IMG/VR virus record: IMGVR_UViG_640427134_000001
Location: 29,660-93,659 of that record
DNA from: a virus
Direction: 5' to 3' (one strand)
DNA: 64,000 bases
The notes beneath the pieces were generated by a model. That model saw nothing but the letters and a program-made list of their open reading frames with translations. It was not told where the DNA came from and ran no database searches. Each line of letters begins with the position of its first letter. Position 1 is the first letter of the stretch. The position numbers and the translations under genes were made by a program. Shown piece after piece: positions 4,920 through 28,415 of this stretch.

Positions 4920-5008
4920 GTTTTTGTCAAAAGAAAGGCCTTGCTGCCACAGACAACAAGGCCATTTTTAGCCATACAACGTGGCGGTCACATGGCTAAG
5001 TTATCGAA

Positions 5009-6817: not shown

Positions 6818-6867
6818 AAGAATATTCCTATCGTCATTGAAAAAAATTGAACATATCCGATAGGGTT

Positions 6868-6907
6868 ATATTAAGACTCGCCTAGACACCCTTTTTAGGG
6901 GTGTTCC
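6868..6907 (-). promoter_or_regulatory. Putative late promoter (GGAACAC-N27-TAATAT) for the capsid operon
   Basis: GTGTTCC at 6901-6907 and ATATTA at 6868-6873 on +; the same spacing recurs at three other late operons. Confidence 0.7.
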
Positions 6908-6913
6908 AATAGC

Positions 6914-6937
6914 AAAAAACCGCCGTTTTAGGCGGTT
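6914..6937 (-). terminator. Intrinsic terminator
   Basis: AACCGCC-N6-GGCGGTT stem followed by a U-run on the minus strand. Confidence 0.7.
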
Positions 6938-7014
6938 AATGAGTGTTGCTGGCAGAGGTTTACATCAAGAAGGTTAGAAAAAACACCAGTACAAGGTTAA
7001 ATGTGTCTAAAACC

Positions 7015-7581
7015 TTACTTGTACGGTACTTCCACATCCTCAATTTCGCTTTCATCGAACGCATCTAAATATTCCAGGTCAAATCTTTGGTTTAGAAGGT
7101 ACCTATGGCCATGACTCACCAACAATGAATTACCAACCACGCCCACGCACTCATGGTATTCCTTATGGTTGTTTAATAAGAAGCAAAACAGGTCGCCTTT
7201 TTTGGGGTTCCAGTCTGGTCTCATTCTTATGCGATCATCGCCTTCCAAATCAATATCGTAAGGCTCAATCAATACCATTGAGCTAAACTGCTCTGGGGTG
7301 ATAAACATGCCGCTATCGTGCATAGGCCCGCCTAAGCTATCTAGTAGCACCACCATAGCGTGCCCTAATGGCTCATAGTCTATTGAATGTTCATCACTGT
7401 CACTTACTGTACCAAGGCCAGCCCATGACAAGTCTGAACGCTCATAATCATCATCATTAACTGTTAGCACTTTACGTCTAAATACAAACGTCGGGATCGT
7501 TGATTGATTGCGCAGCGTGATAATACGCGTACTTAGCGCCTGGCCGTCTGTGACTAGCTTATTTTCAATTTTAAGCGTCAT
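7015..7581 (-). CDS. Putative head-tail/baseplate protein (possibly P1 gp24-like)
   Basis: Adjacent to the gp25-like gene; only weak motif similarity. Confidence 0.45.
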   Translation of the reverse strand: MTLKIENKLVTDGQALSTRIITLRNQSTIPTFVFRRKVLTVNDDDYERSDLSWAGLGTVSDSDEHSIDYEPLGHAMVVLLDSLGGPMHDSGMFITPEQFSSMVLIEPYDIDLEGDDRIRMRPDWNPKKGDLFCFLLNNHKEYHECVGVVGNSLLVSHGHRYLLNQRFDLEYLDAFDESEIEDVEVPYK

Positions 7582-8780
7582 CGCTCACCCCATTTCTTTT
7601 CAAAATCTTGAATATCTGCTTGGTATAGCTGCTTGTACCTGTCTGGTATGCCTTTTTGCTGTAACTGGCTTTGTGCATACTTATAGCTGCTTAATTCAGC
7701 CTTTGTTGGCTCATGCGGGCGTGCTTTAGCTTGCCGTTTTTGTTCAGTGCGTACTTTTTGCTCGGCCTGTTTAACCGCTTGCTTAATAACCTTCGACCAA
7801 TGTAAACGGCCATTCCAGTTGTTGAGTGCTTGAGTCTGTTTGGCTGCTTCTCGTTTGACTTGCTGGCTTGTGCGTCTATGCGATTTAACCTGGTTTTCAG
7901 CCATGGCAATATCAGCCTTGGCATAGTCTCTTACCTGGCTTAGCATCATGCCGCTTGTTAAGTGCTTCATTACTCGCAAGGCGTGTTTGCAAGCCACCCC
8001 TGTTAAATTAGGGTTACGTGTTGATGGATAGCGGTTCTCGTCTATTCCATAGTTGTACTTACCAACGGTGGCAATATAGCGATACCAAAATTGATGACGG
8101 CCACAGTCACAGTCAAATCTTATCTTGCCGTGCAATATGCTATTTCTTACCTCTGCCAAACTAGACGGCTTAGTTCTTAGCAGCAATCCAGGGTAATCTA
8201 GCAGCTGTACTGTTACCTTGTGGTTAGCAACCTTACTTTCTGGCCCTGAATTGGTTAAGAAAAACAAGGTATTGCCTTGTCTCTTATAAACCATGGCCAT
8301 GTAAATTTGCTTGTTGGCTCGCTGGATATCAACGGGCCTTGAGTTGTTGATCACGTCTTGAGGGGTTATACCTCCAGCAAACTTTTTAGCCGCCTTCTTA
8401 ACGTTTGCCAGGTATGCGTCTAATACACTTGCGTCCAATACCTGCATTAAGCTTTCGTTACGCTTGGTATTGCCTAGCGTAAATTCCAATAGCTCGCTTG
8501 CTGATATGCCGGCTAAGCTTTTAGCACTGGCCACCAGGGATTGTAATTGCTGGCTAGTTAGCCTTTCACCGCCCTTGATATCCCTGATCGTATCTTTTAG
8601 ATACCTGTTATGCTGGCTGGCAAATTTGCCCTGCTCGCTGGCCTGCCTGGCTGTATCAATACGCCAACGCCTAAGCTCTTCAAGGCTCATATTGTTTACA
8701 AGCCTATCCTGCCGGCTTACTGGGTTATCCTGATTTTTTGGGCTGTTATTGTTAAACCAGTCCGTATCTAAGTTATCCAT
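7578..8780 (-). CDS. P1 gp25-like tail protein with Cys/His (SWIM-like) motif
   Basis: G(K/R)IRFDCDCGRHQFWYRYIAT...RNPNLTGVACKH closely matches the recalled P1 gp25 motif. Confidence 0.78.
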   Translation of the reverse strand: MDNLDTDWFNNNSPKNQDNPVSRQDRLVNNMSLEELRRWRIDTARQASEQGKFASQHNRYLKDTIRDIKGGERLTSQQLQSLVASAKSLAGISASELLEFTLGNTKRNESLMQVLDASVLDAYLANVKKAAKKFAGGITPQDVINNSRPVDIQRANKQIYMAMVYKRQGNTLFFLTNSGPESKVANHKVTVQLLDYPGLLLRTKPSSLAEVRNSILHGKIRFDCDCGRHQFWYRYIATVGKYNYGIDENRYPSTRNPNLTGVACKHALRVMKHLTSGMMLSQVRDYAKADIAMAENQVKSHRRTSQQVKREAAKQTQALNNWNGRLHWSKVIKQAVKQAEQKVRTEQKRQAKARPHEPTKAELSSYKYAQSQLQQKGIPDRYKQLYQADIQDFEKKWGER

Positions 8781-9071
8781 TTACGCCCCTTTTAAATACT
8801 TGCGTTTGATTGCTATTAAATCCCTAGCGACTGGCAAAAAGATAATGTCTTTTGGCAATGGCTGGCCAATCCTATTCGTGCCAGCGCATACCATAACAAC
8901 GTCTGCATAACTGCGATCCCTGTACGCTCTAAACGCAATTAACGTGGGGTCGTGAATTTCATCACTACCCACTTTCCAGGTTATTAGCCTATCGGTGCGG
9001 CCACGTCGATAAAGCAAATCAACGTGGTCACGTATCGCATTGTGATAAATGTTTAATATGTTCTCAATCAT
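8781..9071 (-). CDS. P1 gp26-like / LysM-like baseplate protein
   Basis: DEIHDPTLIAFRAY...VVMVCAG...LP pattern; next to gp25-like gene as in P1. Confidence 0.68.
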   Translation of the reverse strand: MIENILNIYHNAIRDHVDLLYRRGRTDRLITWKVGSDEIHDPTLIAFRAYRDRSYADVVMVCAGTNRIGQPLPKDIIFLPVARDLIAIKRKYLKGA

Positions 9072-9073
9072 GG

Positions 9074-10405
9074 TTAAGCTGTCCGTAACCAGTAAGCCAC
9101 AACGATTGAAGGCTGCACGTTATTGTGCGGCTTATCTTTCCACCCTGTTTCCGATGTGGGTAAAGGAATCATCTTGCCTTGGGCGCCACTCGCGTAACCT
9201 GTACCACCTCCGCCGTGCCTACGTGCCCCGTGATAACCTGCCTCCCTGACTTTAAGCGCGGTTGAGGGCATCTCTTCGGCTACCAGCTTATGCTCATAAG
9301 CACCAAATGATGATTTAAGCGTCTTGGTCCATGCCGGATCAGCTGCTTTGGTTGATATACCAACAAGCGTTTTACCTTCTGCGAACCTGGCCCACGTGCC
9401 ATAACCTAAAGCAGCCTTAACCTCTGCACTGCTTTTATAGTTATTGGTTGTGGTATAGATAGAACCGATTGGCAGTTCGGTAACTTTGCTTTGAGCCGCC
9501 ACAAGCTGTTGCTGCAATTGCTCAATCTGCTTTTTCATGCCAGCCAGGTCAGACTCTCTTAGGTATTGGCTATGAGGGTGTGCTGCACTGGTATGGCCTG
9601 ATAAGTCTGTTTTTTTAGCATACTGGGTATGAGGGTCGGCTGCCTTGGTATGGTTGCTAAGATCGGTTGATACCTTCGTTATATCTTTACTGTGTTGTGT
9701 CAGCTGTCCACCATGCTGGGTTAGCGTGCCAGCGTGTGTATCAACTAGCTTTTTAAGTGCGTCGTGTAGCTTAACGTGTGCGTCATGTACTGTTTTAAGC
9801 GTGTATTGCGGGTGAGGGTTAGCAGCTGCAATGTGCTTGCTTAAATCACCCGATGCCGTATTGATATTTTGGCCTAGCTTATCCACCTTCTTATCAAGCT
9901 GTGAAAACTTATCGTTATTAATATATTGAGGGTGTGGATTGGCTGCGCCTACATGATCTTCCATCATCTTAACGACAATAGCGGCGTCAGGATCGGTTGA
10001 AACCGTTATGTTCTCAACGTCGATTTCGCCTAGCGATAAGCCAAAACTACCAACAAAGGTAACGTTTGCATATACGGTAAATAAAGGGGTGTTGCTGGCT
10101 GCTACTGCAAACAGCGTATTATCGCTTGTAAGCAATCCGATCTCGTGAATAACTCTTGATTGAATGCTGTTTAAGCTAACACTAAATCGCAAAGACTTAC
10201 TATCCTTCTCAATACCACTTGTCACGATATCAGAACGCATAGCCTCTGTTCTAATACGTGTTTCCTTACCAGTTGGGACGTACTTCGACGTGCCAGCGAC
10301 AAGCGTTTTTAAAGACAAGCTTATACCTTGCTTTTGAGCGTCTAGCACTGCTAAACGCCCTGCGTCGGTTATTTTAAATATAATTGGGTTGGGTTTATTC
10401 GCCAT
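9074..10405 (-). CDS. Tail fibre / short fibre protein
   Basis: N-terminal ITDAGRLA...EIGL....LFAV baseplate-attachment domain, four HxxAAxPHxQY repeats, and a C-terminal PIGSIY...GTW...HNNVQP collar-like domain. Confidence 0.8.
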   Translation of the reverse strand: MANKPNPIIFKITDAGRLAVLDAQKQGISLSLKTLVAGTSKYVPTGKETRIRTEAMRSDIVTSGIEKDSKSLRFSVSLNSIQSRVIHEIGLLTSDNTLFAVAASNTPLFTVYANVTFVGSFGLSLGEIDVENITVSTDPDAAIVVKMMEDHVGAANPHPQYINNDKFSQLDKKVDKLGQNINTASGDLSKHIAAANPHPQYTLKTVHDAHVKLHDALKKLVDTHAGTLTQHGGQLTQHSKDITKVSTDLSNHTKAADPHTQYAKKTDLSGHTSAAHPHSQYLRESDLAGMKKQIEQLQQQLVAAQSKVTELPIGSIYTTTNNYKSSAEVKAALGYGTWARFAEGKTLVGISTKAADPAWTKTLKSSFGAYEHKLVAEEMPSTALKVREAGYHGARRHGGGGTGYASGAQGKMIPLPTSETGWKDKPHNNVQPSIVVAYWLRTA

Positions 10406-10440
10406 GACTTACGCAATCCTTAAAATTTCGGTATTGCATA

Positions 10441-10479
10441 AGTTTAACCACTTAGGCTGGCAAGTATGCCATGTGTTCC
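10441..10479 (-). promoter_or_regulatory. Putative late promoter (GGAACAC-N26-TAAACT) for the fibre-gp26-gp25 operon
   Basis: GTGTTCC 10473-10479 and AGTTTA 10441-10446 on +. Confidence 0.72.
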
Positions 10480-10489
10480 ACCTGCCAGC

Positions 10490-12055
10490 CTACTCACCAA
10501 GCAATTCATCGGCCGCTTGCTTTAATAGGTCTAATTCATCGCTTTCAGTGCTACCGATATTTAGGTCCTCGTAACTTTCAACCGGCGCATAGCTTATGTT
10601 CTCCATAAAGCCAAACGCTATGGTATCTGCAATATCCGGTGACTTAATGCCCTTTTTGAGCATGTCTTTTTTGGACATCATGCACCAACGCGCCTTTTCA
10701 TCAAAGTAATACGGTAAGCGCGTCATCTGCTCTTCTAAGTTAGTCATTACCTGGTACATTTTTTTAACCTTATCGCTTACACTGAAATAGCCTTTTTCTA
10801 CTGCCTTAGCCATTGATACATAAGCGTGGCTGCGTTTGTTCATGTAGTAGCGTTTGAGCGTGTTGTTAAAGCAAGGCGAACCCCAATGCACTTCATCAAA
10901 ATACACCCCATCAGCTTTTAACGACTGCGTTAACCCCATACCAGCGCCTAGGGGATCAATCACCAAGGTCGCGCCTGGATAATCGCTCATTACATCATTG
11001 ATTTTGGCTTTAAGCGTATTGATATTAGCTCTATTACTAAACAGCGGTATATCAAGTAAATGTACGTGCCTCTCAATACGGCCCTTGATCATCTTATCAA
11101 CGACTTGCATTACCGATATCACGCTACTATCGCGGCCAACGTCGCCGCCCACGTCCACGGCTACGATGATACCCCACTTGTCACCCTCTTCAATCACGCA
11201 AGGCTGCTGCTTCATATTCTCGTAGTCAGTGCGCGTTAATAGGTACTCACCTTTAAGCTCTGGGAACTTACCGCGAATACGAATTAGATACCCTGGGCTG
11301 TTTCGACTGCCATACTGATACAAAGCCTCGATCAGCTTGTCCTTACTAACGATCGGTGACATTTCACCGTTAAATTCAAGCGCGGTCCACTTACCGCCGT
11401 TATGGTGGCTTAGCTTATGGTGTGTGTCGTAGAAGAAACCGGTGTTTTTAGCCGGCTGGCTAGTTAATACGGCCCTGTTGTTTTCATGGGTTAATGCGCC
11501 AATGGCAACTTCCATTACCGCGTCATCAATACCACAAGCTTCATCAGCCCATACCATGTAGTGATCGCCGTGTTGACCGGCAATGTTAGTTGGTTGGTGT
11601 TTAGGTGCTGTCTTAGCAAAAACGAACCAGGTATCTTTAAAACCCTTGATGTAAATCTTTTCTGCCAGCACGACAACATAATCAGCAAGCCAGCCTAGCG
11701 CCTTGTTATTGCGTAGGCGCTGCAAACAGATATTAATCTCTTTCCAAACAACCGTTCTAAGCTGGCCAATTTGAGGGGCGGTAAACAGCATTACCGACTC
11801 GGGGTAAAATAAAAGGTGCCATAAGGCGATAATGCCGGCCGAGCGCGATTTGCCAGTGCCATGACCAGATGCAACGCTTGTACGGCTGCCAGGGACAACA
11901 ATAGATTTAAACAATAGCTCTTGCTGCCAGGTTACTGCTTGTCCGGCCTGTATTGTCATATCTAAAGCTTCAACGGCAAAGCGCGTAATGTCATAGCGAT
12001 ACCTTTGGCATACCTCACGCCATTCAGGTAACAGCATTAAATCATCTAACATCAA
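10490..12055 (-). CDS. terL: Terminase large subunit, P1 PacB-like
   Basis: SVASGHGTGKS Walker A, VWADEACG Walker B, VDVGGDVGRDSS nuclease motif and C-terminal SPDIADT; N-terminus WREVCQRYRYD matches PacB as recalled. Confidence 0.92.
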   Translation of the reverse strand: MMLDDLMLLPEWREVCQRYRYDITRFAVEALDMTIQAGQAVTWQQELLFKSIVVPGSRTSVASGHGTGKSRSAGIIALWHLLFYPESVMLFTAPQIGQLRTVVWKEINICLQRLRNNKALGWLADYVVVLAEKIYIKGFKDTWFVFAKTAPKHQPTNIAGQHGDHYMVWADEACGIDDAVMEVAIGALTHENNRAVLTSQPAKNTGFFYDTHHKLSHHNGGKWTALEFNGEMSPIVSKDKLIEALYQYGSRNSPGYLIRIRGKFPELKGEYLLTRTDYENMKQQPCVIEEGDKWGIIVAVDVGGDVGRDSSVISVMQVVDKMIKGRIERHVHLLDIPLFSNRANINTLKAKINDVMSDYPGATLVIDPLGAGMGLTQSLKADGVYFDEVHWGSPCFNNTLKRYYMNKRSHAYVSMAKAVEKGYFSVSDKVKKMYQVMTNLEEQMTRLPYYFDEKARWCMMSKKDMLKKGIKSPDIADTIAFGFMENISYAPVESYEDLNIGSTESDELDLLKQAADELLGE

Positions 12056-12063
12056 CTACCCCA

Positions 12064-12588
12064 TTAAATACTAAAAGGCATTAAACCATAGTCGCTATCC
12101 TTGTCGTTTGAGCTATCATCAAGCGTTATTGGTGCGGTTGACATAAGATAGCCACCGTGTATCTTTCTAGCCGCCCAAATAGCCAATAAAACGGCCATGT
12201 GGCCATTGGTAATGCCCATTGAGTCAAAGTCTAATACTTTTCCTCGTTCGTCCATTTTGCGCATCTGAATAACGTCTTTTGGCTCATACCGTCTTAACGC
12301 ATCCTCAATCAAAATTAAGCCTGATCGCTGGGCCTCGTTATACACAGCCATAACCTCTGCCATTTGCTCGGACTCGTTAAAACTCATATCCCAGTAATCA
12401 AAGATCATTGGCGTATCAGTGACTACCACAGCATTATCTTTTGGTACCGGCTGCTCTTTCCACGTGGCTTGTTTTTTAAGCATAACCCTGCCTGATGCTG
12501 GCAAGACAACGCCTAATACGCGTATAGCCTCGCCAGCATAAGCGGCCGCCCTTGCGTCAATAACAACCGGCTTAACCTGGTCATTCAT
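12064..12588 (-). CDS. Hypothetical phage morphogenesis protein
   Basis: 174-aa ORF coupled between the PmgC-like gene and terL. Confidence 0.55.
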   Translation of the reverse strand: MNDQVKPVVIDARAAAYAGEAIRVLGVVLPASGRVMLKKQATWKEQPVPKDNAVVVTDTPMIFDYWDMSFNESEQMAEVMAVYNEAQRSGLILIEDALRRYEPKDVIQMRKMDERGKVLDFDSMGITNGHMAVLLAIWAARKIHGGYLMSTAPITLDDSSNDKDSDYGLMPFSI

Positions 12589-13591
12589 CGCCGGCAGCCC
12601 CTTTCTTGGCCACGTTAGTTTCAGTGATTACACCCGTATCAGGGTCAATAGCAACTCTGACTTCATGGTCTGAATCTTCATCATCAACATTGGCTTCGAT
12701 AACCAGGCTATTAAGCTTCTCATAGCTATCACGGTTCCCCTCAACTGGCTTATCCCCTGGAATCGGAACTCTTGGCGGGTTAATAGCTGGGCCTTCTGGG
12801 TTTTCAGGATCAAGCGGTATCGTTGGCTTCTCTGGATCATATTCAGGGTTTGGCCGTGTCGGTAAGCTCTCTTGTGGCTCTCCAGTATCGGTCACTTCAT
12901 CCCAATCACCACCCAATCCCACAAACTCAGGAATAGCACCAACGATCGTACAATCAACCGTTACGATGAATAGGTTTTTAAGGTCAATAGATGCGTTATC
13001 AGGGTAAAGGCTGTTTTCTAATACCCTAAAATTCCAATCATCTTTAATCGCCTTACCCTCAAGAACCCCAACGTCATAAGACACTGGGAATGTTCTTTTC
13101 TCTTCGTGTTTCCAAAAGCTGGCAAACTGCCTGGCAATATCCGACGCGCTATGGGGATCGGGGCTAAAAAAGGCAATTTGACAACGATAAGCCACGGGGA
13201 CCGATCGCATTTGCACCACTCGCTTTAATGGATCTTGAGGTAGCACCACGTTTACCCAATACGGTAGGCCGCCTACCTGGTCATATTCAGGCGGCGTTTC
13301 AATCGGACTAATGGCCGTCATGAGGACCGGTAAGTAAACGGACGAGCCGGACTCTTTTTTGTAACCTGCGTTTTTTGCGTTATCGTTTTCCTGGATAGCT
13401 TTTAACATGCTCTCCACATCATCGACCATTGAGGTTTTGGCCACAACAATAGCCGCTTCTAGCCTGCGTCGTTTCCAGTCATAAACGCCTTGAGTGGTTG
13501 GCATGCACCACTGCCTAAAGTCTCTTAGATTCATGGCCCATGCCAGCTGCAAGCACTCAAGCGGTGATAGTAGTCGTTTTGTCTTGCTCAT
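12581..13591 (-). CDS. P1 PmgC-like neck/tail-terminator protein with Pro-rich C-terminus
   Basis: LPVLMTAISP and PVAYRCQIAFFSPD...A..FASF resemble recalled PmgC segments. Confidence 0.5.
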   Translation of the reverse strand: MSKTKRLLSPLECLQLAWAMNLRDFRQWCMPTTQGVYDWKRRRLEAAIVVAKTSMVDDVESMLKAIQENDNAKNAGYKKESGSSVYLPVLMTAISPIETPPEYDQVGGLPYWVNVVLPQDPLKRVVQMRSVPVAYRCQIAFFSPDPHSASDIARQFASFWKHEEKRTFPVSYDVGVLEGKAIKDDWNFRVLENSLYPDNASIDLKNLFIVTVDCTIVGAIPEFVGLGGDWDEVTDTGEPQESLPTRPNPEYDPEKPTIPLDPENPEGPAINPPRVPIPGDKPVEGNRDSYEKLNSLVIEANVDDEDSDHEVRVAIDPDTGVITETNVAKKGAAGDE

Positions 13592-13605
13592 TGCTCAACC
13601 CTTAA

Positions 13606-14538
13606 TTAAAGACCACGGAATCTATCAACAATACTGATGCGCTCTTCTTGTCTATCTGACTTGCCAGCCACTTTATCTAGCTCGCTTATGCGTAAATCTG
13701 CGTCTGATGTACTGCCAATATGAAAGCTATCCCATTGGGCCTTAATTTCATCAAACGGCTTAGAAGGGCAAATTAGGCTGTCAAAAAGCTCTAATTCTCG
13801 CTGCTTCTTGCGCTCTAATACTTTTTGACGACGCATTTCTGCATTTATCAAAGCGTCCTGGGCTGCTAGTGCTTCACGCTGATAATGGCTTACCAGTGAC
13901 TCTGAATGTAGGGCTGTTTGCATTGAGTCGTATTGAGCAATGATGATGCGCTCTAAAGCCTCTTTTAAGACAATCTGATCTTGTGGTAGCTCTACCAGGC
14001 TATCAAAGCACGCCTCACCTTCGGTATAAGCGCCATTCAAGATACTATCAAACATGCCGTCGCCTTTATTTGTGGCATAGTTTGGCGTTCTCACATAGTC
14101 AAAGCCATGAAAGCCGGTGACCTCATAATAACCGTCTGGCTTACGTCTGCGGTTAATAGCACTACTAAACCCGCCAGCTTTATTCGCGTATAAGCGCGCG
14201 GCAAATTGGCCGTCGTCGGTATCTAAGAACTCATGCTGCGTAACAACGTTTCCATCATCGTCGGCTTCAAGTCGAATTGTGCGTAAGGCTGGCTGGATTT
14301 TAATAATACGGCCCGTCTTTTCATCCACCCATTGGTCTGGTGGGTACATGCCAAAACGAGCACGTATCTCATGGCCATTAAAGCCAAACAAATCACCACT
14401 GCTAACAAGCTCTTGAACCTCTGGTGAATTAATCTTGTTAACCATTGAGCGAATATCTAAATCTGATCTATCCTGGCCATTGTATTTGCGACCACGGTCC
14501 GCCAGGTTGTATGTAATAACTTTAGTTTTCTTAGCCAT
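13606..14538 (-). CDS. Prohead protease, P1 Pro-like
   Basis: G(D/E)LFG(F/Y)xGH, PALRT, AGGFS and FHGFDYVRTPNY match recalled P1 Pro motifs. Confidence 0.8.
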   Translation of the reverse strand: MAKKTKVITYNLADRGRKYNGQDRSDLDIRSMVNKINSPEVQELVSSGDLFGFNGHEIRARFGMYPPDQWVDEKTGRIIKIQPALRTIRLEADDDGNVVTQHEFLDTDDGQFAARLYANKAGGFSSAINRRRKPDGYYEVTGFHGFDYVRTPNYATNKGDGMFDSILNGAYTEGEACFDSLVELPQDQIVLKEALERIIIAQYDSMQTALHSESLVSHYQREALAAQDALINAEMRRQKVLERKKQRELELFDSLICPSKPFDEIKAQWDSFHIGSTSDADLRISELDKVAGKSDRQEERISIVDRFRGL

Positions 14539-14585
14539 GAAAAAAAACCCCTTAAAAAAGGCATAGAATATTTAATATATGCCTT

Positions 14586-14624
14586 AGTTTAAGGGGTTAA
14601 GCTGTTTTGCCTTTGGGGTGTTCC
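14586..14624 (-). promoter_or_regulatory. Putative late promoter (GGAACAC-N26-TAAACT) for the protease-terL operon
   Basis: GTGTTCC 14618-14624 and AGTTTA 14586-14591 on +. Confidence 0.72.
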
Positions 14625-14999
14625 TTTAGGCGAAAAAAAAGGCCGCCAGGGAACGGGGCAGCCAAAAAAAATACAAGGATCAATAGAAATAACACGTCAT
14701 CGTAAAAACGGGGTAGAACCGCCCCGAAATTGTCGGAGACTCAACGCTCCAAGAGAATACGACAATGAAAACACGAGGCTATACCCCTGAAATGAAAGAG
14801 CGAGCCGTCCGTATGCTAATTGAAGCTAAAGCCGATTACCCATCCACCTGCTCAGCCATCAAAGCTATAGCACCAAAGATAGGTTGCACACCTGAGACCC
14901 TACGATCATGGCATAAAAAGCACGTAGATAAAACTGATGTATGCTGAAAAAAACGGACAAAAATATTTGGTAAACTAGAATCCTAAACAGGAGTTTACC

Positions 15000-15296
15000 A
15001 TGAGTAAGAAAAGAGTAGAATACAGCGACACTTTCAAAGCTGAAGCCATCGCCAAAGTCAAAGAAAATAACGGCAACATCAGTCAAACGGCTAAAGAACT
15101 TGGCATACCCATGAACACACTAGCAAACTGGCATAGGAAGGCTGAAAGAGGCGTACTTGCAGGCACCCAAAATTACAATTCTGAACTCATAGCCGCCTTG
15201 GATGAAATCAAAGACCTAAAAAAACAACTAAGAATCGCTCAAGAGGAACGAGAAATTCTAAAAAAGGCAACGGCGTACTTTGCCAAGAATCAATAG
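15000..15296 (+). CDS. IS3 transposase OrfA (HTH)
   Basis: YSDTFKAEAI...ILKKATAYFAK signature. Confidence 0.92.
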   Translation: MSKKRVEYSDTFKAEAIAKVKENNGNISQTAKELGIPMNTLANWHRKAERGVLAGTQNYNSELIAALDEIKDLKKQLRIAQEEREILKKATAYFAKNQ

Positions 15297-15310
15297 CCAA
15301 GTACGCCTTT

Positions 15311-16165
15311 ATGCAAGAGAATCGATTGAAATACTGCATACAACGTATGGCGACCGTATTTGAAGTCAGCCTATCAGGCTACTATGACTGGCTAAAGCGA
15401 GGCATGAGCAAGCGAAAACAGCACCACAATCGCTGTGAGTTACTGGTCAAATCCGCTCATATGGATACACAGCAAAGCTATGGGCATGAACGCTTGCATC
15501 AGCATTTAACCAGCCAAGGACACGACATCAGCCTGTACATGGTTCGGCAAATCAAGCAAGAACATGGTATTTACTGCAAACGCCACAAGCGATCTAAGGT
15601 GACTACTGACTCAAATCATAATAAGCCTGTGTATCCAAACTTGTTAGAACAGCAGTTTGACGTGGCAGCACCCAATATCGCTTGGGTTAGCGATATTACC
15701 TATATTTGGACCAATGAAGGCTGGGTGTACTTGGCAGCGTTCAAAGACTTGTACAGCAAAGAGATTGTGGGATATGCTCTAAATAAGCGTATGACCGCTG
15801 ATTTGGTTTGTGAGGCTTTAAACAATGCCATTAAGTACAAACGCCCTGCTCGGGGCTTAATCGTGCATTCTGACAGGGGTAGTCAGTATTGTAGCCATCA
15901 ATACCGCCAAATCATCGACAAGTATGGTTTTGCTGGCTCTATGAGCCGAAAAGGCAATTGCTACGATAACGCCCCGATTGAAAGCTTCTGGGGTCAGTTA
16001 AAAAACGAGCTGATTTATCACAAAGTCTATGAGACTCGTGATGAAGCCATTAAGGATGTGGTTAGATATATTGAGATTTTTTACAACCGTCAACGAATAC
16101 AAAAAGGGTTAGGATTTAAGTCACCTACTCAAGTATTCCAAGACTTTTACCGTCAGGCTGCCTGA
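15311..16165 (+). CDS. IS3 transposase OrfB (DDE), likely joined to OrfA by a -1 frameshift
   Basis: WVSDITY, HSDRGSQY and DNAPIESF motifs. Confidence 0.93.
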   Translation: MQENRLKYCIQRMATVFEVSLSGYYDWLKRGMSKRKQHHNRCELLVKSAHMDTQQSYGHERLHQHLTSQGHDISLYMVRQIKQEHGIYCKRHKRSKVTTDSNHNKPVYPNLLEQQFDVAAPNIAWVSDITYIWTNEGWVYLAAFKDLYSKEIVGYALNKRMTADLVCEALNNAIKYKRPARGLIVHSDRGSQYCSHQYRQIIDKYGFAGSMSRKGNCYDNAPIESFWGQLKNELIYHKVYETRDEAIKDVVRYIEIFYNRQRIQKGLGFKSPTQVFQDFYRQAA

Positions 16166-16607
16166 TGAAATCTACCAAATGTTTTTCTCCGTTGTTGACA
16201 GCAGAGGTCAAACCATTCCTGCAAATATTCAAGCTCAAAGCCAAGCCGAGCGTATCAAAGAGCTTGAACGTGAGAACAGAGAACTAAAACAAGCCAATGA
16301 CATTATAAAGAAAGCTACAGGTCTTGAAGCCCAGACGCAGCTCGACCGCAAACCCCCAAAATAGTCTGTTATAAGTGGCTTTATTATAACGGTCTATTTT
16401 AGGTGGTCTATTAATGTTTTATAAGGCGTTTTCAGGTGGTTCTGCTAGGGTATACTGAAAATAAACTTGTCCTGTGCCTGATTCCAGTAAAACACTCTCC
16501 GAAAATATCGAGACGATTCACGGTTGGTTACAGATAGTTTGGGTATTATTTTTATCTCTATGCTTGATAGGCTTTATGAGCTTACCACAAATAATTTTTT
16601 CATTCGG

Positions 16608-17408
16608 TCAGTCCTCGCTTTCATCCGACCAATTTTGACTCAACTCACTCACCAAACGACTCTCATCGCATTTAAAATCAATATAGTGATAGGTATTGGC
16701 AGGCAATAGCCAATCCTGCCCTGTCAGTGGACATTTTTGTTCCATATCTTCTGCCTTTGTCCAATCACGGTAATTCATTAAAAAATAATAGGTGGGTACA
16801 CCTGTGCTTTGTTCAATGATACGGCACAATTCTCGACCTATTTTGCTATGCTCAGAATTGGGATTTTGCATTTGCTCTAAGGCAAAGGCTTCACTTACTG
16901 GTTGAGAACCAAGCCACAAACGATATAACGCTTCAGCCTGTCGATACCATGACCACACATTATCATAACAAGGGTGATCAGGTTGGGTATATGGGATTTT
17001 ATATAGAGGAATGCCTTGTAAGGTTACTCCATCTAGTAAAGGCGAACTCCAGCCCCAACGCAACATGTAAAATTCAGATTGCGTTGGTACGGCATAACGG
17101 GGAAGAGGATAGTCATGGTCTTCTCCGATATACAAGGTTTGAATGGGTTTACCTGCTAACTGTTCGATTTTATTGTGCATTTCTTGGGCATAGCTGTTCA
17201 TATTTTTACGGTCAAGGGCATCCATTTCAGGACACACTACAGTCACGCGAGTAATATCATTTTGGCTAACAGCTAAATGATGGTTACGGGGTAATATTTG
17301 TCCGTTGCCTTCTAAATCTCCTAAATAACAAAATACATCATGGTCGTGGCTGTCATCATCTTCAGCGATACCTGTATATTGGGGTATGATAATATCAAAG
17401 GCGTGCAT
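16608..17408 (-). CDS. DUF2310 Zn-ribbon-containing protein
   Basis: GNGQIL, SPL..G...IPLY.IP, GRELC..IE..TG.PTYYFL and CP..G..W...FKC..SRLVS pattern. Confidence 0.8.
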   Translation of the reverse strand: MHAFDIIIPQYTGIAEDDDSHDHDVFCYLGDLEGNGQILPRNHHLAVSQNDITRVTVVCPEMDALDRKNMNSYAQEMHNKIEQLAGKPIQTLYIGEDHDYPLPRYAVPTQSEFYMLRWGWSSPLLDGVTLQGIPLYKIPYTQPDHPCYDNVWSWYRQAEALYRLWLGSQPVSEAFALEQMQNPNSEHSKIGRELCRIIEQSTGVPTYYFLMNYRDWTKAEDMEQKCPLTGQDWLLPANTYHYIDFKCDESRLVSELSQNWSDESED

Positions 17409-17616
17409 TTTTATATCTCATGCTTAATTTATATTAAATATAGTTGGGGATGTTGCTGTTGAAATTGGTTAAAGTGCTGTCTTGTAGTGGCAATTTAACC
17501 TATACCGTCAATGCCGTACACTCAAAATCGGGATATTTTGGTCAGACAATTAGCAGATTTTTTAAGTATAATTAAAGTTAAACAGCGGCTCAAATTTACT
17601 TAAGAGTATTAAAAAC

Positions 17617-18384
17617 ATGGAACTAAAATCAATAAAAGACCAACTTTATTACTCCACTGTGATGATCGAAACAGCTCAAGGAGCAGGAACGGCTTTCTTA
17701 CTATCCAAAACAATAGTTGGGCTTACTAGAGTCTATTTAGTAACTAACAAACATGTGGTTAAAGATAAAACAGACTGTGTGGTTAGATTCCATAGATCAG
17801 AATCCTTGGATCCGAAAACCAAAGTAGGTGACTTTGTTTATCACTTCACGAATGAAGACTGGGTTAATGGCTGGAAGTTTCATGATGATAATGAAGTTGA
17901 TTTAGCAGTATTTAATTTAACAGAAACAATAGCTGCTCTTTATCAGCAAGAGCACTATATATTCTATCGTTGTCTAACAACGGATATGATTACTAGTAGG
18001 GAAAAAGAAAAAGATATTGTTGTAATGGAAAGGATATTTTTCGTAGGTTATCCTAATGCTATTAGGGATGAAGTTAATAATTTACCTATAGCGAGAAGTG
18101 GCTATTTAGCTACACCTTTATATTCGAATTTCGATGGAAAAGAAGCGTTTTTGTTCGATGCTAGTGTCTTTGAAGGGTCGAGTGGTAGTCCGGTATGTAT
18201 TGTGAATGAAAATTTTGAAACTTATTCCGATGCAAGGGGAAATGCTAAAATCGAAGGGCGCTGTATCTTAGCTGGAGTAAACTCTAGTACATATACTAGA
18301 GTAAGCGATAAACAATACTTAAATATTGGATACGCATGGAAAGCTTATAAAATTTTAGAAATTCTTGAACAGAACGAAATATAG
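17617..18384 (+). CDS. Cytoplasmic trypsin-like serine protease
   Basis: Catalytic triad contexts LVTNKHVV, VDLAVF and GSSGSPV; no signal peptide seen. Confidence 0.85.
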   Translation: MELKSIKDQLYYSTVMIETAQGAGTAFLLSKTIVGLTRVYLVTNKHVVKDKTDCVVRFHRSESLDPKTKVGDFVYHFTNEDWVNGWKFHDDNEVDLAVFNLTETIAALYQQEHYIFYRCLTTDMITSREKEKDIVVMERIFFVGYPNAIRDEVNNLPIARSGYLATPLYSNFDGKEAFLFDASVFEGSSGSPVCIVNENFETYSDARGNAKIEGRCILAGVNSSTYTRVSDKQYLNIGYAWKAYKILEILEQNEI

Positions 18385-18444
18385 TTTAATCTACACTATG
18401 AATTAAGGAGACCATCCGAGACCATCCCGAATTCTGGTCACTAT

Positions 18445-18735
18445 CTAGTTTTCTAGCAATCTTCTAAGCTCAAATTTTGCTTTCTCAAAATTGCTAAAAA
18501 TGATATTCAGTACACTTATTTTTTCGTCAGTTCCTTCAAACTCACTATACCAGTATTCAAAGTCGAACTGACCATCAGATTCATAAGTAATCTTTATAGC
18601 TTTTTTCTTGTCTTTGTGAATAAAGCTGACGTTATCTTCGGTATCTAGCAAAGTGCCATCATTACCATTCTTATTAAGCCATAACTGCCAATTTTGTGCG
18701 GTAGTGACACTACGCCATAATTCTAGCGATTTCAT
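18445..18735 (-). CDS. Hypothetical protein
   Basis: 96-aa AT-rich ORF. Confidence 0.55.
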   Translation of the reverse strand: MKSLELWRSVTTAQNWQLWLNKNGNDGTLLDTEDNVSFIHKDKKKAIKITYESDGQFDFEYWYSEFEGTDEKISVLNIIFSNFEKAKFELRRLLEN

Positions 18736-18938
18736 AATTTCTCTATTGGTAGTTTTATTGATTAAGTTGACGGATTTTAAGCTTAAAACGCTAAAATTTT
18801 GTACACCTTGAAGTACACAGTGAATATTTTAGCAAGTTAGTACGTTGATAACATTAGCCTGTAGCCTATTTTTCAAGTCCTCACTAGGGAGCCGAACCAG
18901 TAAAGATGCCTAACTGGTTCGCCATAGGTGTAGCTGTT

Positions 18939-19535
18939 TTACGATTTTACAGTAGGATAAGGATTATTCACTAGGGGGCTAACATCCGTTTGCATTTGCC
19001 ATACGAAGTAAACAAAAATCACTATAACAGCTAGAAAACAAAGTAGACTAAGATTTTTAGCTATTTTAGTGAACCATAACTCTTCAGAATATATAGCATT
19101 TGCTTTGTATTTCTTTTCACCTCCCAATAGTAAGTAGTATCTTTGAACCTGTAGCTTATAGCCCAAATCCTTAGTATTGATTACGTCTGTATATAGGTAA
19201 ATAGCACCAAATACGATACCCAGTGCGTTTACGGATATGGCGATTTTTAATAAAATTAGCTGATCTAATGATAGTGACGACCTATCAGGCATTTGAGTGA
19301 TAATAACTGAAAAAACACCAGCTGCTATCACAATAAGCCATTTCATCCACTCATTATCTTGCTGTTTTGCTAAATTATTTTGCTTAACAATTTCTCTTTC
19401 GAGTTCGTCAAGGTAATGCTTTAACAGTTGATATTTATATAAAAATTCCTCGCTAAGATCATTGTCAAGTTTACTTTCTAACTCATCTTGCAGAAGCTTA
19501 AATTCTTGCTTGCTCGTTAATTTTTTCGGACTCAT
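18939..19535 (-). CDS. Membrane protein of unknown function
   Basis: Several hydrophobic segments; coupled to the upstream ORF. Confidence 0.6.
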   Translation of the reverse strand: MSPKKLTSKQEFKLLQDELESKLDNDLSEEFLYKYQLLKHYLDELEREIVKQNNLAKQQDNEWMKWLIVIAAGVFSVIITQMPDRSSLSLDQLILLKIAISVNALGIVFGAIYLYTDVINTKDLGYKLQVQRYYLLLGGEKKYKANAIYSEELWFTKIAKNLSLLCFLAVIVIFVYFVWQMQTDVSPLVNNPYPTVKS

Positions 19536-19762
19536 GATTCTTTCTCATCAACTTCTGAACTTACATAGCTAATAGTCTCTGAAGGTGTCTCTTTTTTCCT
19601 TGGTCCACTAACCAAGATGAGCCCCCAGATTCTTTGTAGTCTGCTATTTTCTAACATGGTATAAGCAGTTACACAAAGTTTAGGAAAGTCTCGTAGTAAG
19701 TCGTGCTGCATCCGATAACGTCTACCGTCGTACATTGTTCGCAGCATTAATATCACAGTCAT
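19532..19762 (-). CDS. Hypothetical protein
   Basis: 76-aa ORF directly downstream of the tape-measure-like gene. Confidence 0.5.
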   Translation of the reverse strand: MTVILMLRTMYDGRRYRMQHDLLRDFPKLCVTAYTMLENSRLQRIWGLILVSGPRKKETPSETISYVSSEVDEKES

Positions 19763-19774
19763 AGTGAGTTAAAA

Positions 19775-22726
19775 CTAACCCCAATACCTACCTTCACCCA
19801 ACCCTCCCGTAATCGCATGTGCAAGCCCTCTATCTGAAACATTTTGACCTATATTATCATTATTAGACTGAACTATGATAGGCTTGTCCAGACCACCACC
19901 TGCCAGCGGCAATTTAAACGAAGGCATTTCAGGGATGTTAAGCACATTTTTTAGTATTGACGCGCCCAAATCGAGGCCTATTGACTGGCTGGCTGGTAGG
20001 TAGGCTGGCGTGTTACCTACAACAAAGTTATTGGCCAAGCCGCCAACATTAACACCTAACACACTGTTAGTTGTTTTGGTTTTTTGTTGAACCGACTGAA
20101 CCGCTGTATTATTGTAGATACCCTCTGCAATTTTCGCACGCTCTCTCTTTTCAGCCTCAACTGCACCTGGTCGCTCGTAGTGCTCTGACACAATAGCCCC
20201 GGACTGGCCTGCTGTTTTGGCTTGTTTTAGCTTATTACCAGCCGCCTTCTCTTTACCCTTCGTTAGCTCATACTGAATAAAAGCTAACTGCTCTTCGAAC
20301 GACGCTTGCTGTACTGACTTACCCATAGTGCTACGGAAGTCTGCAAGCCTGCTATCTCGCCATTGAGCTAAGCCATGTGCCCTATATACACCGTTTTTAT
20401 CTTTATCCCCTTGAGCTCTAGGGTCGAACCTACTTTCTTTTTGGATGTTAGCGACAATACCAGCGGCTTGCTGCTTAGTCCAACCTTGAGACATGAAGTA
20501 TTGCATAGCCTGATCACGTCTAGTCTTTTCACTTTGTGAAGTTAGTCTGCTCGAACTAACATCAACTGCACCGCCGCCGCTTAACTGGCCTCTAAGCTCT
20601 TTGTAAGGATCAACTACTGTTACCCCAAATTGACGGCCATTAAGGTTTTTGACGTACTCGCTAAGCTCTGTTTTTCTTACACCGCTTTTACCATCCTTGC
20701 CTTTAGCTGATGTAGATTCAGAAACGTATTTAACGCCGTTTTCTTCAATGATCTGCACAATATGACCGATGTCTTTGTATCTGCCTTCTTTTTTTGCATG
20801 CTCCCCACGTGACTCACCGATAACCATGCCAGCCTGCAACTTATTGATATCTAGTTGAGCCCAGCTGTTTGCTGTGGCTACCAGGTGCCCTTTCTTTTCC
20901 TCTGACTGAATAATACCGGCTGCACCATTGCCTGCATTAATACGAGCACGTTTAGCCGCCTCTGGCCCTAGCTGATCTTCAATCTGTCTTACGGTATCTT
21001 TGTTTAATTGATCAACCCAGCCTGAACAATCAATAACACCGCCGCTAAAGTTTTTAGCACCCATTTTATAGGTTACGCCGTCTTTGGCTGATGTTAACCC
21101 TGAACCAAAATCAACCTTCCAGCCGCCCGAACCATTACCACCGCCAAAAAAGCTACCAAACCCATCGCCCATTCTTGATAGCCACGACTTCATGCCGCTG
21201 GCCGCCTCGCTTAGCTTAGAAAAGACCGGTGCCAACCCACTTTCCCACTTAGTTTGCATTTTTTGAGGTAAGTTATAAGCCTTAACGCTATCGGTCCATG
21301 ACTTGATATGAGGCGAAGCTGTACTGCCTAAAACCTCGCCGCCCTCGTTACCTAGCCAGCCACCCACGGCCGCCCCAATGGCGGTACCTACCACCGGAAT
21401 TGGTATCAATGCCGTACCAAGTGCTCCACCAGCAACGGCACCGACACTACCGCCTGCCAGGCCACCTACATTTTCTGACTTCTCTTTGTGGTCACGCTCT
21501 TTCCACTGGCCAATCAAGTTGCCCAAGCCAACCGCCGTCGCTAACGGCCCTAAAACTTTAGCACTACCAACTACTTTGGCTGCCTTCTTGACACCCTCAC
21601 TGCCAATCTTGCCAGCGCCTAAAACAGCCGCGCCAGCTCCACCAGCCAAGATAGACCTAATACCCTTGCTTTTATCTTTACCTCCTTTACGGCCCTTATC
21701 CTTGCCTTTGCCTTTACCCCTGCCACCACCTAAAACACCTAAGCCACGACCCAACTTACCTAGCAGTGAACCTTCACTGTCTGGCATTCTCTTTAGGATC
21801 TCACCTAGCGTTTCCTCGTTCTGCTTATTGTGTCTTGCCTGATCCTTTGGCAATGGCTCTTTACGCTTTAAGCTTTTGTATTTAGAGAATGAAAACCTGC
21901 CAGCCCTTAAAGCTGCCTTGCCAGCCGCGCCGCCCATCTTGCCAGCTTTCGTGGCCATATTAAAAATAGGCGATGCAATGTCTTTTACCTCGTTCGCCGA
22001 GGCAATCAACGGATCAATGTTTTGAGCACCGCCATAACTGCCATAGCCTGTACGGCCACTCTTGGCTATTTTAGATAATGAGTCAAATAGCGTTTTTTCT
22101 TTGGCTGTAAAACGGCCTAGCTCGTCACGATCGCTTTCTTTTTGCTTCTTCTCACGCCCATTTTTGCCAGTAGGATTGTTTGCCTTACGTGTTGCACCAG
22201 GTACGCTGCCAGCGGCGTTATTTGCCGCTTCTGGGCTCTGACCTCTACCAGCACTTGATCTATTGGCACCGCTTGAGCCGCTATCGCTTTGATTGTTAGC
22301 TCTATTGGCCAGCGTTGAACCTGATTTGACTTTAGCGCTTGAGGTGACATTACTAAGCGTGTCGCTGCTCTTTTTACCAGCGGCCCTTGCCTCTTTTTGG
22401 GCTGGCTGGCTTGCACTACTTAATTTCTGCCTGTGTTGTTGCTTTGACTGCGCCTGGCCTTGCATGCTTGGCTGGCTGGCATCATTACGCCCTAGGCTTG
22501 TGGGATCGTAAGTAGGCACCACGCCCTTAATACGCATAGACTTTTTGTTAGCTATGCGCTCATTAGATTTAGCTATGCGGTTTAATACCGTTTGGTTGAT
22601 CTGATTTTGTGATTTTAGTATCTGTATGATTTCTTGGGTATCTTCACCAATGGATTTAATGCCGCTTTCTAGCCGCTTGGTACCAACGATGAAGCCTTGA
22701 TCATCATAGTTAAGATAAGTTGCCAT
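19775..22726 (-). CDS. Tape-measure / Sit-like virion protein with two peptidoglycan hydrolase domains
   Basis: Gly/Ala-rich hydrophobic stretch, NlpC/P60-like YKMG...DCSG...HI domain, and phage tail lysozyme domain (AAGIVANIQKES...GLAQW...EQLAFIQYEL...YERP). Confidence 0.75.
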   Translation of the reverse strand: MATYLNYDDQGFIVGTKRLESGIKSIGEDTQEIIQILKSQNQINQTVLNRIAKSNERIANKKSMRIKGVVPTYDPTSLGRNDASQPSMQGQAQSKQQHRQKLSSASQPAQKEARAAGKKSSDTLSNVTSSAKVKSGSTLANRANNQSDSGSSGANRSSAGRGQSPEAANNAAGSVPGATRKANNPTGKNGREKKQKESDRDELGRFTAKEKTLFDSLSKIAKSGRTGYGSYGGAQNIDPLIASANEVKDIASPIFNMATKAGKMGGAAGKAALRAGRFSFSKYKSLKRKEPLPKDQARHNKQNEETLGEILKRMPDSEGSLLGKLGRGLGVLGGGRGKGKGKDKGRKGGKDKSKGIRSILAGGAGAAVLGAGKIGSEGVKKAAKVVGSAKVLGPLATAVGLGNLIGQWKERDHKEKSENVGGLAGGSVGAVAGGALGTALIPIPVVGTAIGAAVGGWLGNEGGEVLGSTASPHIKSWTDSVKAYNLPQKMQTKWESGLAPVFSKLSEAASGMKSWLSRMGDGFGSFFGGGNGSGGWKVDFGSGLTSAKDGVTYKMGAKNFSGGVIDCSGWVDQLNKDTVRQIEDQLGPEAAKRARINAGNGAAGIIQSEEKKGHLVATANSWAQLDINKLQAGMVIGESRGEHAKKEGRYKDIGHIVQIIEENGVKYVSESTSAKGKDGKSGVRKTELSEYVKNLNGRQFGVTVVDPYKELRGQLSGGGAVDVSSSRLTSQSEKTRRDQAMQYFMSQGWTKQQAAGIVANIQKESRFDPRAQGDKDKNGVYRAHGLAQWRDSRLADFRSTMGKSVQQASFEEQLAFIQYELTKGKEKAAGNKLKQAKTAGQSGAIVSEHYERPGAVEAEKRERAKIAEGIYNNTAVQSVQQKTKTTNSVLGVNVGGLANNFVVGNTPAYLPASQSIGLDLGASILKNVLNIPEMPSFKLPLAGGGLDKPIIVQSNNDNIGQNVSDRGLAHAITGGLGEGRYWG

Positions 22727-22761
22727 GATAAAGCCTTATAAATACTGTACGTGTGGCTTGA

Positions 22762-22801
22762 ATTATGGCATTGCTGGCGGGTTGTGGGCTTTGAGTGTTC
22801 C
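22762..22801 (-). promoter_or_regulatory. Putative late promoter (GGAACAC-N27-CATAAT)
   Basis: GTGTTCC 22795-22801 and ATTATG 22762-22767 on +. Confidence 0.68.
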
Positions 22802-22808
22802 TAGAGGC

Positions 22809-23507
22809 TTAAATTTGCCCAAATAACATTACGCTATGTATTAATGAAGGACCTACGAGCACCATAAATAATCCGGCTAAAATCATTGTTAAACTTGCTA
22901 TAACGCCTTCATCCTCATTGCGCTGACTTGCACGGGCTGTACCAAAACCGTGTGATGCATTACCAAATGCGATTCCATTTGCAAAATGGGAGCGAATACG
23001 GAAAAAAGTCAAAATCATATCCCCTAAAATCATTCCCACCATCCCTGTAATCAAAGTAAATAATGAAACTAAAGAGGAAGATCCGTGAATTTTTTCAGAT
23101 AAGTCTAACGCAAATGGTGTCGATATTGAACGGGCCATCAAGCTATAGGTCAAGGTCTCATCAAAATTGAATAAGCCGGCAAATATATATATGCTTAAGA
23201 CTCCCACCACCATTCCAACAATTATAGAAGCGCCCAAAGCCAAAGCATTTTGACGTATTAAACGACGATACTCGTAAATAGGTATAGCAAAAGCAACCGT
23301 TGCGGGGACAAGTAACTGTACAATCCAAGCTGTATCCTCCCAATATGTATCATAAGAGATATTAAAAAAAATCATTAATGAAAGCGTTATTACTGGAACC
23401 GTGATAGCAGGATTTAGCCAAGATTTTCGATGGCGTAAATAAATTACTTTGGCTATATAATAAGCAGCTAATGTCCAAATTAGACAAAGGATTGACCAAG
23501 TATTCAT
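22809..23507 (-). CDS. lrgB: LrgB/CidB family membrane protein
   Basis: ATVAFAIPIY, RSISTPFAL, G.ASHGFGTARA and EG.IASL.M motifs. Confidence 0.9.
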   Translation of the reverse strand: MNTWSILCLIWTLAAYYIAKVIYLRHRKSWLNPAITVPVITLSLMIFFNISYDTYWEDTAWIVQLLVPATVAFAIPIYEYRRLIRQNALALGASIIVGMVVGVLSIYIFAGLFNFDETLTYSLMARSISTPFALDLSEKIHGSSSLVSLFTLITGMVGMILGDMILTFFRIRSHFANGIAFGNASHGFGTARASQRNEDEGVIASLTMILAGLFMVLVGPSLIHSVMLFGQI

Positions 23508-23516
23508 CGCAAATCC

Positions 23517-24008: not shown

Positions 24009-24143
24009 AATAGTTGCTGTTTGTTAACTCGACACCCCTTATTATAAAAATACTATAGCCATAAATTATGAATTATATTTTTATTTTTATTCTTAATTTA
24101 TATAATAAACTTCGTTCTTTCTCCTAAATGTGGTCTATTATTT

Positions 24144-25025: not shown

Positions 25026-25034
25026 GAAATTAGG

Positions 25035-28373: not shown

Positions 28374-28415
28374 GTTTAGTCCATAGATTTCTGTTTATTA
28401 ACACCCTAATTTATT

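Follow-up and report, generated by a model that had tools for sequence, protein, structure and literature searches.

The provirus considered here, IMG/VR record IMGVR_UViG_640427134_000001, comprises 111,412 bp and is classed as a provirus in that database. The analysis covers the window, a stretch of 64,000 nucleotides (nt) corresponding to bases 29660-93659 of the record, and its subject is a short box, GGAACAC, which precedes late operons on the minus strand together with a -10-like hexamer. Homologues of the capsid protein and of a helix-turn-helix (HTH) protein point to Psychrobacter as the host; a prophage of Psychrobacter sanguinis CCUG 59771 has a capsid protein with 96% identity. In protein comparisons the large terminase is PacB-like, with 31-33% identity to those of P1, P7, D6 and SJ46, and it is 54% identical to its counterpart in Acinetobacter phage vB_AbaM_ABMM1 (ABMM1) and 35% identical to that of Xanthomonas phage Rb1; judged by these identities, the provirus is a distant relative of P1. 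A megablast of window positions 5000-23600 against cultured phages returned no match, and the phage collection searched contains only two cultured members of the lineage.

A preliminary description of the window had placed GGAACAC on the minus strand in the gaps before four late genes (capsid, fibre, protease and tape-measure-like), followed after 26-27 nt by a -10-like hexamer. A sequence scan of the window found the motif at all four places (6901-6907, 10473-10479, 14618-14624 and 22795-22801), and the hexamers TAATAT, TAAACT, TAAACT and CATAAT begin 27, 26, 26 and 27 nt after it, as had been claimed. Counted from the GGAAC core, as is done below, the hexamer follows after N28 or N29. The four boxes, designated S1-S4, are in sense orientation within short intergenic gaps, and the ATGs at 6817, 10405, 14538 and 22726 follow them after 68-84 nt. 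The predicted transcript starts listed with them follow by arithmetic from the hexamers.

6894-6907, minus strand: S1 box GGAACACCCCTAAA, before the major capsid operon; orthologous box in Psychrobacter relatives, ABMM1 and distant relatives
6868-6873, minus strand: S1 -10-like hexamer TAATAT, 29 nt after GGAAC; predicted start near 6861
10473-10479, minus strand: S2 box GGAACAC, between the large terminase and tail-fibre genes; ABMM1 has TGGAACT in the same gap, at position 2680
10441-10446, minus strand: S2 -10-like hexamer TAAACT, 28 nt after GGAAC; predicted start near 10434
14612-14624, minus strand: S3 box GGAACACCCCAAA, before the protease-like operon; ABMM1 counterpart at position 73769
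14586-14591, minus strand: S3 -10-like hexamer TAAACT, 28 nt after GGAAC; predicted start near 14579
22795-22801, minus strand: S4 box GGAACAC, before the 983-aa tail-lysozyme/tape-measure-like gene; ABMM1 counterpart at position 62785, before the 'tail tip lysozyme' gene
22762-22767, minus strand: S4 -10-like hexamer CATAAT, 29 nt after GGAAC; predicted start near 22755
Record positions 5896, 13920, 19319, 23798 and 26179, minus strand: five more GGAACAC-N27-hexamer sites, left of the window

The five additional sites precede a 784-aa gene, a gene for a 907-aa internal-head-protein-like product, and the tail tube, baseplate and sheath operons, so that the regulon has at least nine members rather than four. 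The gene names given in the preliminary description mostly hold. The capsid label is supported, the 602-aa protein being the counterpart of the capsid protein in ABMM1 and Rb1, and so is the tail-fibre label of the gene after S2. The protease label corresponds to 35% identity between the 310-aa protein and the annotated prohead protease of Rb1, and the 983-aa protein combines a tail-lysozyme domain with tape-measure-like matches. In the S3 operon the prohead-protease-like gene is accompanied by two unnamed genes and by that of the large terminase. Terminators lie upstream of S1 (6918-6937, just before the box and belonging to the preceding operon) and of S3 (14643-14656).

Distribution, spacing and conservation of the box

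The motif is no more frequent than chance would have it: the window holds six copies, all on the minus strand, against 4.6 expected, and the two copies additional to S1-S4 lie inside genes (32533 and 60860). Its placement is what sets it apart. On a crude gene map of the 111-kb record, intergenic DNA accounts for 5.3% of the sequence, and GGAACAC is intergenic in 9 of its 12 copies in the whole record; among 16146 ranked 7-mers it is the one most enriched between genes (binomial p 4e-10). All nine intergenic copies are on the minus, late-gene strand, 57-90 nt before a minus-strand gene, and throughout the record the box is confined to late operons. Its consensus in the provirus extends to GGAACACCCCTAAA. 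A second enriched intergenic word, GGTAAACT, was rejected as a phage regulatory site, as it represents the ends of a three-copy IS3-type insertion sequence.

The spacing is equally strict. In the record, nAnnnT follows exactly 29 nt after GGAAC in 8 of the 10 intergenic GGAAC copies and at 28 nt in the other two; the hexamer peak is at 29 nt in ABMM1 too (14 of 22 sites), and the spacer measures 28-29 nt in all 20 Psychrobacter-clade sites. All nine provirus promoters have A at position 2 and T at position 6 of the hexamer. In sequence logos GG is the best-conserved part of the box, and across the 20 Psychrobacter-clade sites the 8 nt preceding the hexamer are nearly devoid of information. No canonical -35 is present, in agreement with the preliminary description: the best match at 16-18 nt spacing reaches 1-4 of 6 positions, and a scan of 6700-23000 with the sigma-70 consensus found no promoter at S1-S4 and no overall excess of promoter-like sites. 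Site alignment and logos revealed no conserved element 16-18 nt after GGAAC, and GGAAC as a -35 of the extracytoplasmic function (ECF) type paired with a -10 at that distance was rejected on that ground. Contigs from four public RNA runs over 4400-14900 run across the promoters and, with DNA carry-over possible, are uninformative on starts or expression.

Motif, spacing and position are conserved, and vary, across relatives of the provirus. Absence of the motif from homologous prophages was to have counted against the preliminary description; it is conserved in ABMM1, in Psychrobacter relatives and in distant relatives. ABMM1 has about 14 intergenic TGGAACy-N29-nAnAAT sites, and eight of the nine provirus promoters have such a site before the homologous gene, the shared positions being those of the capsid, fibre, protease-like, tail lysozyme, sheath, tube, gp28-like and gp77-like genes. 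The DNA flanking these shared sites is unalignable, and the large terminases are only 54% identical. Psychrobacter relatives whose capsid proteins are 52-61% identical keep GGAACACCCC-N-hexamer, with spacers of differing sequence. Relatives with 24-28% capsid identity, together with Rb1, carry cGGAAAA(A/C)-N29/30-nAnAAT before the capsid gene and other late genes; their hosts include Nitrosomonas, Collimonas, Burkholderia, Comamonas, Pigmentiphaga, Methylobacter, a Pseudomonas metagenome-assembled genome and others, and in Rb1 itself this variant box precedes the protease, capsid and tail genes. GGAAA-N28-31-nAnnnT was found in 33 of 34 distinct capsid upstream regions of the distant relatives, compared with 11.5% of random windows.

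An unbiased 5-mer test on strand-oriented upstream regions, with T runs set aside, returned the same cores. GGAAC ranked first in the Psychrobacter relatives (13 of 26 regions) and in the Acinetobacter relatives (31 of 64), and GGAAA in the distant relatives (59 of 170). One subclade has a third variant of the box, (C/A)GAACC, at the same spacing. Divergent promoters occur with two of the variants: (C/A)GAACC-N28-TATAAT promoters at L140:6213-6406, with a hairpin after each, in the subclade whose HTH recognition helix reads TQKARISEIESG, and back-to-back GGAAAA promoters between the portal-like and protease-like genes of a Nitrosomonas marina prophage (L139, G001:C55 about 40149-40175). The literature searched on phage late promoters and on ABMM1 contains no account of a GGAAC late-promoter motif; the box is family-wide in the lineage and probably marks a so far undescribed late-gene switch that would need a phage activator.

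Leader hairpins and the candidate activator

At nearly every site the leader can form a hairpin. Its 5' arm, often CCCTAT, starts 0-3 nt past the hexamer; its 3' arm, just upstream of the start codon, contains the Shine-Dalgarno sequence and often leads into a T run.

6818-6867, 10406-10440, 14539-14585 and 22727-22761, minus strand: leaders with hairpins at S1-S4
6818-6867, minus strand: S1 leader; 5' arm CCCTATCG adjoins the hexamer; its pairing partner, CGATAGG, contains the Shine-Dalgarno sequence

Because the 5' arm begins so close to the hexamer, an RNA started 7 nt past it would lack most of that arm. Computed folding energies change to match. The S1 leader folds with -9.2 kcal/mol when transcribed from upstream and with -3.9 kcal/mol from the predicted late start; for S2-S4 the corresponding values are -9.6, -7.6 and -4.1 kcal/mol from upstream and -1.6, -4.4 and 0 from the predicted start. 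This loss of the fold backs the hexamer as the true -10 and speaks against a start at the hexamer itself. Arm sequences vary between promoters and between orthologous sites while pairing is kept, as in the capsid leaders of three relatives (L058, L060 and L008). Some leaders resemble terminators, with an 11-bp stem and T6 before the sheath gene and a hairpin with T6 at S3; at S1, S2 and S4 the loop is long or the T run is missing. In transcripts reading through from upstream, the fold would mask the ribosome site or terminate the RNA, and transcripts initiated at the promoter would escape. We infer that the hairpins silence or terminate read-through transcription in this way.

The putative activator would come from the early-right genes, whose last member, just before the likely small-terminase gene, encodes the HTH protein.

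34186-34875, minus strand: candidate late activator, 229 aa; N-terminal XRE-type HTH followed by a long helical hairpin; HTH_3 and phrog_7396 matches
33299-34186, minus strand: likely small terminase (by position), 295 aa; follows the HTH gene; 25% identical to ABMM1 gp69

The HTH protein is 31% identical to ABMM1 gp68. At the BLAST threshold used, the early-right proteins shared with ABMM1 are this one, the terS-like protein (gp69) and a 114-aa protein (gp58), and only the HTH protein among the three has a DNA-binding domain; a cI-like repressor also matches between the two genomes at that threshold. Pfam scans of the other early-right proteins recovered only a Cro-like protein. The order nuclease, HTH, terS-like is common to ABMM1 (gp67-69), Rb1 (gp1-2, then terS and terL) and the N. 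marina prophage (184 aa, HTH of 216 aa, 290 aa, TerL), and the large terminase follows the terS-like gene where the module is intact. Family searches gave no assignment for the 295-aa protein; in the N. marina prophage the large terminase gene comes directly after the gene for its 290-aa equivalent.

Comparison of the AlphaFold model of the HTH protein (pLDDT 77) with PDB, AFDB Swiss-Prot and also the ESM Atlas placed it closest to C.BclI, C.AhdI, ImmR and the N-terminal domain of lambda cI. Where the box is GGAAC, the recognition helix is predicted to read xNR(I/M)SEIE, and where it is GGAAAA, (P/S)SKL(S/A)KVE, a correspondence that fits the HTH protein as reader of the box. On these comparisons it is the likeliest activator, with a chance that we put at or just short of even. 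In ABMM1, a GGAAC-N29-AATAAT site stands upstream of the rusA/HTH/terS-like operon (59517-59560; L003:9517-9560), which suggests that the candidate activates its own gene; no comparable box precedes the HTH gene in this window. Among cultured phages, a tblastn search with the HTH protein recovered ABMM1 alone, so that phages whose structural modules are unrelated provide no independent test. A strong hairpin with T8 (34955-34990), located between the VRR-NUC and HTH genes, faces the plus strand and would end a transcript antisense to the HTH leader.

Searches for other types of regulator were negative. Pfam searches of the record detected neither sigma-70 region 2 (PF04542) nor region 4_2 (PF08281), neither Mor (PF08765) nor Ogr/Delta (PF04606), and neither of the Q families PF06530 and PF03589. 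P1 Lpa gave only tblastn matches with E above 3 in the window, hhalign of the HTH family with Lpa returned a probability of 0.15%, and phmmer found no Lpa homologue in the record, ABMM1, Rb1 or the N. marina prophage; nor is a PacA homologue detectable in the record.

The late region is broken up by an IS3-type element, a LrgAB/LysR pair and a restriction-modification block. The IS3-type element occurs three times in the window (14765-16400, about 53500-54190 and 54150-55340), with an orfA of 98 aa and an orfB of 284 aa; its copies begin with GGTAAACT...AGTTTACC, and one lies just upstream of S3. Contigs of related strains, from RNA runs and metagenomes, stop matching the window at exactly 14627, where the S3 box has its upstream edge. 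Between the likely terS gene and the late operons, 22809-33162 carries LrgB/LrgA-like genes, a LysR-type gene and a type I restriction-modification-like block. An unrelated metagenomic contig (L141) shows the HTH gene and the 295-aa gene followed by a type I restriction-modification system as well, and the junction after the terS-like gene therefore seems to be a recurrent insertion point.

Readings of the late-promoter layout

The four sites are probably late promoters belonging to a regulon of at least nine members, of a sigma-70 type that lacks a -35 and depends on a phage activator. Each promoter would combine a sigma-70-type -10 (nAnAAT, with A at -11 and T at -7), no usable -35 and the asymmetric box GGAACAC(CCCTAAA), the GGAAC core lying at about -46 to -42, centred near -44, and the extended box reaching to -33. 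Host RNA polymerase alone would use such promoters poorly. Bound to the box, a phage factor from the early-right operon would recruit the sigma-70 holoenzyme, or stabilise it, from a position overlapping the -35. Such class-II-like activation would turn on together the operons for head, tail, packaging and injection; the strict phasing at 28-29 nt speaks for a factor that touches the polymerase directly. We infer transcript starts, activator dependence and activator identity from the sequences. The multi-promoter late regulon put forward in the preliminary description is supported by nine late operons in the provirus, eight orthologous positions in ABMM1 and the GGAAAA variant in distant relatives. 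So is its contrast with the single antiterminated late promoter of lambda, given nine promoters and no Q-type domain in the record.

A broader proposal is made more tentatively. A large and little-studied P1-related lineage of temperate myoviruses may share one undescribed late system, in which an XRE-type HTH protein replaces Lpa and a single asymmetric GGAA(C/A) box stands at -44. The lineage in question comprises Psychrobacter and Acinetobacter prophages (including the A. baumannii phage ABMM1), Rb1, and Nitrosomonas, Burkholderiales and methanotroph prophages. Under this proposal the box would probably be read inside the polymerase complex and not by a dyad-binding dimer, and the promoters would be nested in silencing or terminating hairpins; taken jointly, these elements are possible, at somewhat less than an even chance.

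Several points weigh against an HTH activator acting at box-dependent promoters. The asymmetry of the box is a weak point, since XRE-type HTH proteins that carry a coiled-coil tail are usually dimers on dyad sites, and the logos contain no clear second half-site. The fold matches of the modelled HTH protein are generic for the XRE class and provide no functional lead, and helix and box vary together across what is essentially a single evolutionary split, so that common descent could account for their match. Should transcription start before the hexamer, the late RNA would include the hairpins, and the layout would have to be interpreted differently. In GC-rich relatives GGAAAAA (-46 to -40) also resembles a proximal UP-element subsite, as cGGAAAAAC (about -47 to -39) of distant relatives resembles the proximal UP subsite AAAAAARNR. 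This last resemblance would suit a host that reads the box itself, by a UP-like contact of the alpha subunit or through a conserved host regulator, with timing set by loss of the repressor or by genome copy number; the strict spacing to the -10 likewise suits contact within RNA polymerase. Such host reading is nevertheless improbable. The box of Moraxellaceae phages, GGAACACCCC or TGGAACy, has no A tract, with GG its best-conserved part; it is restricted to late operons, differs between phage clades in step with the phage protein, and differs between subclades whose hosts are similar in GC content.

We also consider it unlikely, to much the same degree, that a phage specificity factor without recognisable sigma-70 domains uses GGAAC as a -35-like element, with the start at or near the hexamer and the hairpin as the 5' end of the late mRNA. 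GGAAC recalls the -35 of ECF sigma promoters, and the hexamer with its CCCTAT box would become a conserved initial transcribed sequence whose hairpin would stabilise the 5' end. The interval 16-18 nt after GGAAC, however, contains nothing conserved, the sigma-70 region 2 and region 4 domains are absent from the record, and the invariant A2 and T6 of the hexamer are a sigma-70 -10 signature, found in GC-rich hosts too; a hairpin masking the Shine-Dalgarno sequence in the main capsid mRNA would, moreover, hamper its translation. Terminator-like leaders such as those of the sheath gene and S3, which look like true intrinsic terminators, and the position of the HTH gene, which is that of lambda Q, would accord with Q-like antitermination, in which constitutive or weak promoters meet a promoter-proximal terminator (hairpin and T run) that is read through by means of a phage factor loaded at the box. 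That account is very improbable: promoters without a -35 are unlikely to be constitutive, a start 7 nt past the hexamer would exclude the 5' arm, the leaders of S1, S2 and S4 have a long loop or lack a T run, Q-family domains are absent from the record, and there are nine to sixteen promoters per genome, not one. Barely credible is a motif without a transcriptional role, be it a signal for recombination or module junctions or a repeat that accompanies intergenic DNA by chance. Insertions between modules make these genomes mosaic, and the related-strain contigs diverge at the very edge of the S3 box; but the box is strictly phased with a -10-like hexamer, has a fixed orientation and distance to the gene start, and persists in relatives whose capsid identity is only 24-30% while the surrounding DNA is unalignable.

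Read as activator-dependent promoters, the sites define a late-gene regulon that is testable, with a candidate activator, a box, a spacing and predicted starts. Members of the lineage are common in Psychrobacter, in Acinetobacter (A. baumannii among them) and in many beta- and gammaproteobacteria, and the box would allow late operons to be annotated from sequence alone in its prophages. The variants GGAACAC, TGGAACy, cGGAAAA and GAACC form a natural series for following co-change of activator and site. P1 relatives, it would appear, do not all use the Lpa system, and an asymmetric site bound within the polymerase complex, if true, would be unusual for a protein of the XRE-type HTH class.

Comparison with known systems

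The preliminary description had likened the layout to the Lpa-dependent late promoters of P1, and this likeness stands in part. P1 has 11 late promoters, dispersed over its genome (PMC10695390). As at the P1 promoters that depend on Lpa with host SspA, there are many dispersed promoters with a -10, no -35 and a short conserved box, in a genome that is P1-related. The candidate activator gene, too, lies between nuclease and packaging genes, as in pdcB-lpa-pacA-pacB. The P1 promoter layout, read from the GenBank annotation, differs in that the LPpac box has 9 bp and ends 4 nt from the -10, in the '-22 region', whereas the box of the provirus stands 28-29 nt upstream, near -44; the candidate here is an XRE-type HTH protein, and no Lpa or PacA homologue was detected by the searches described above. 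With a PacB-like terminase in the provirus the comparison is apt, as an analogy of logic only. The Lpa regulon of P1 is the closest known system in logic and ancestry, but the provirus departs from it in the two features that define it: where the box lies and the presence of an Lpa homologue.

Class II promoters, among them PRM activated by lambda cI, those of Mu Mor and C, and those of restriction-modification C proteins, share with the provirus sites a known or, here, putative activator site near -42 to -44 that lies over or abuts a poor -35 in fixed phase, together with a -10 that has A at -11 and T at -7 (nAnnnT in all nine sites). The fold search places the candidate in the same XRE-type HTH class as lambda cI and the C proteins, and the switching on of several late promoters would be analogous to the action of Mu C. 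Class II activators differ by binding dyads as dimers, whereas one asymmetric box of 5-14 bp is conserved here. The record also differs from Mu in having no Mor-family domain and from P2 in having no Ogr/Delta zinc finger.

Two layouts of phage T4 complete the comparison. At T4 middle promoters, the MotA box is read by a phage adaptor protein. Like these promoters, which involve MotA and AsiA, the provirus sites have a short asymmetric box in place of the -35, at a strict distance from a sigma-70 -10; they differ in that the MotA box is found near -30, separated from the -10 by about 12 nt, and in that the phage here is temperate. In the T4 genes e, soc and 49, a late promoter lies inside a hairpin, and only the transcripts from that promoter are translatable. 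The predicted late start of the provirus similarly falls inside the 5' arm of a hairpin that would mask the ribosome site. T4 late promoters use gp55 and a TATAAATA box, whereas the provirus has this arrangement at nearly all of its late promoters, with some hairpins that are terminator-like.

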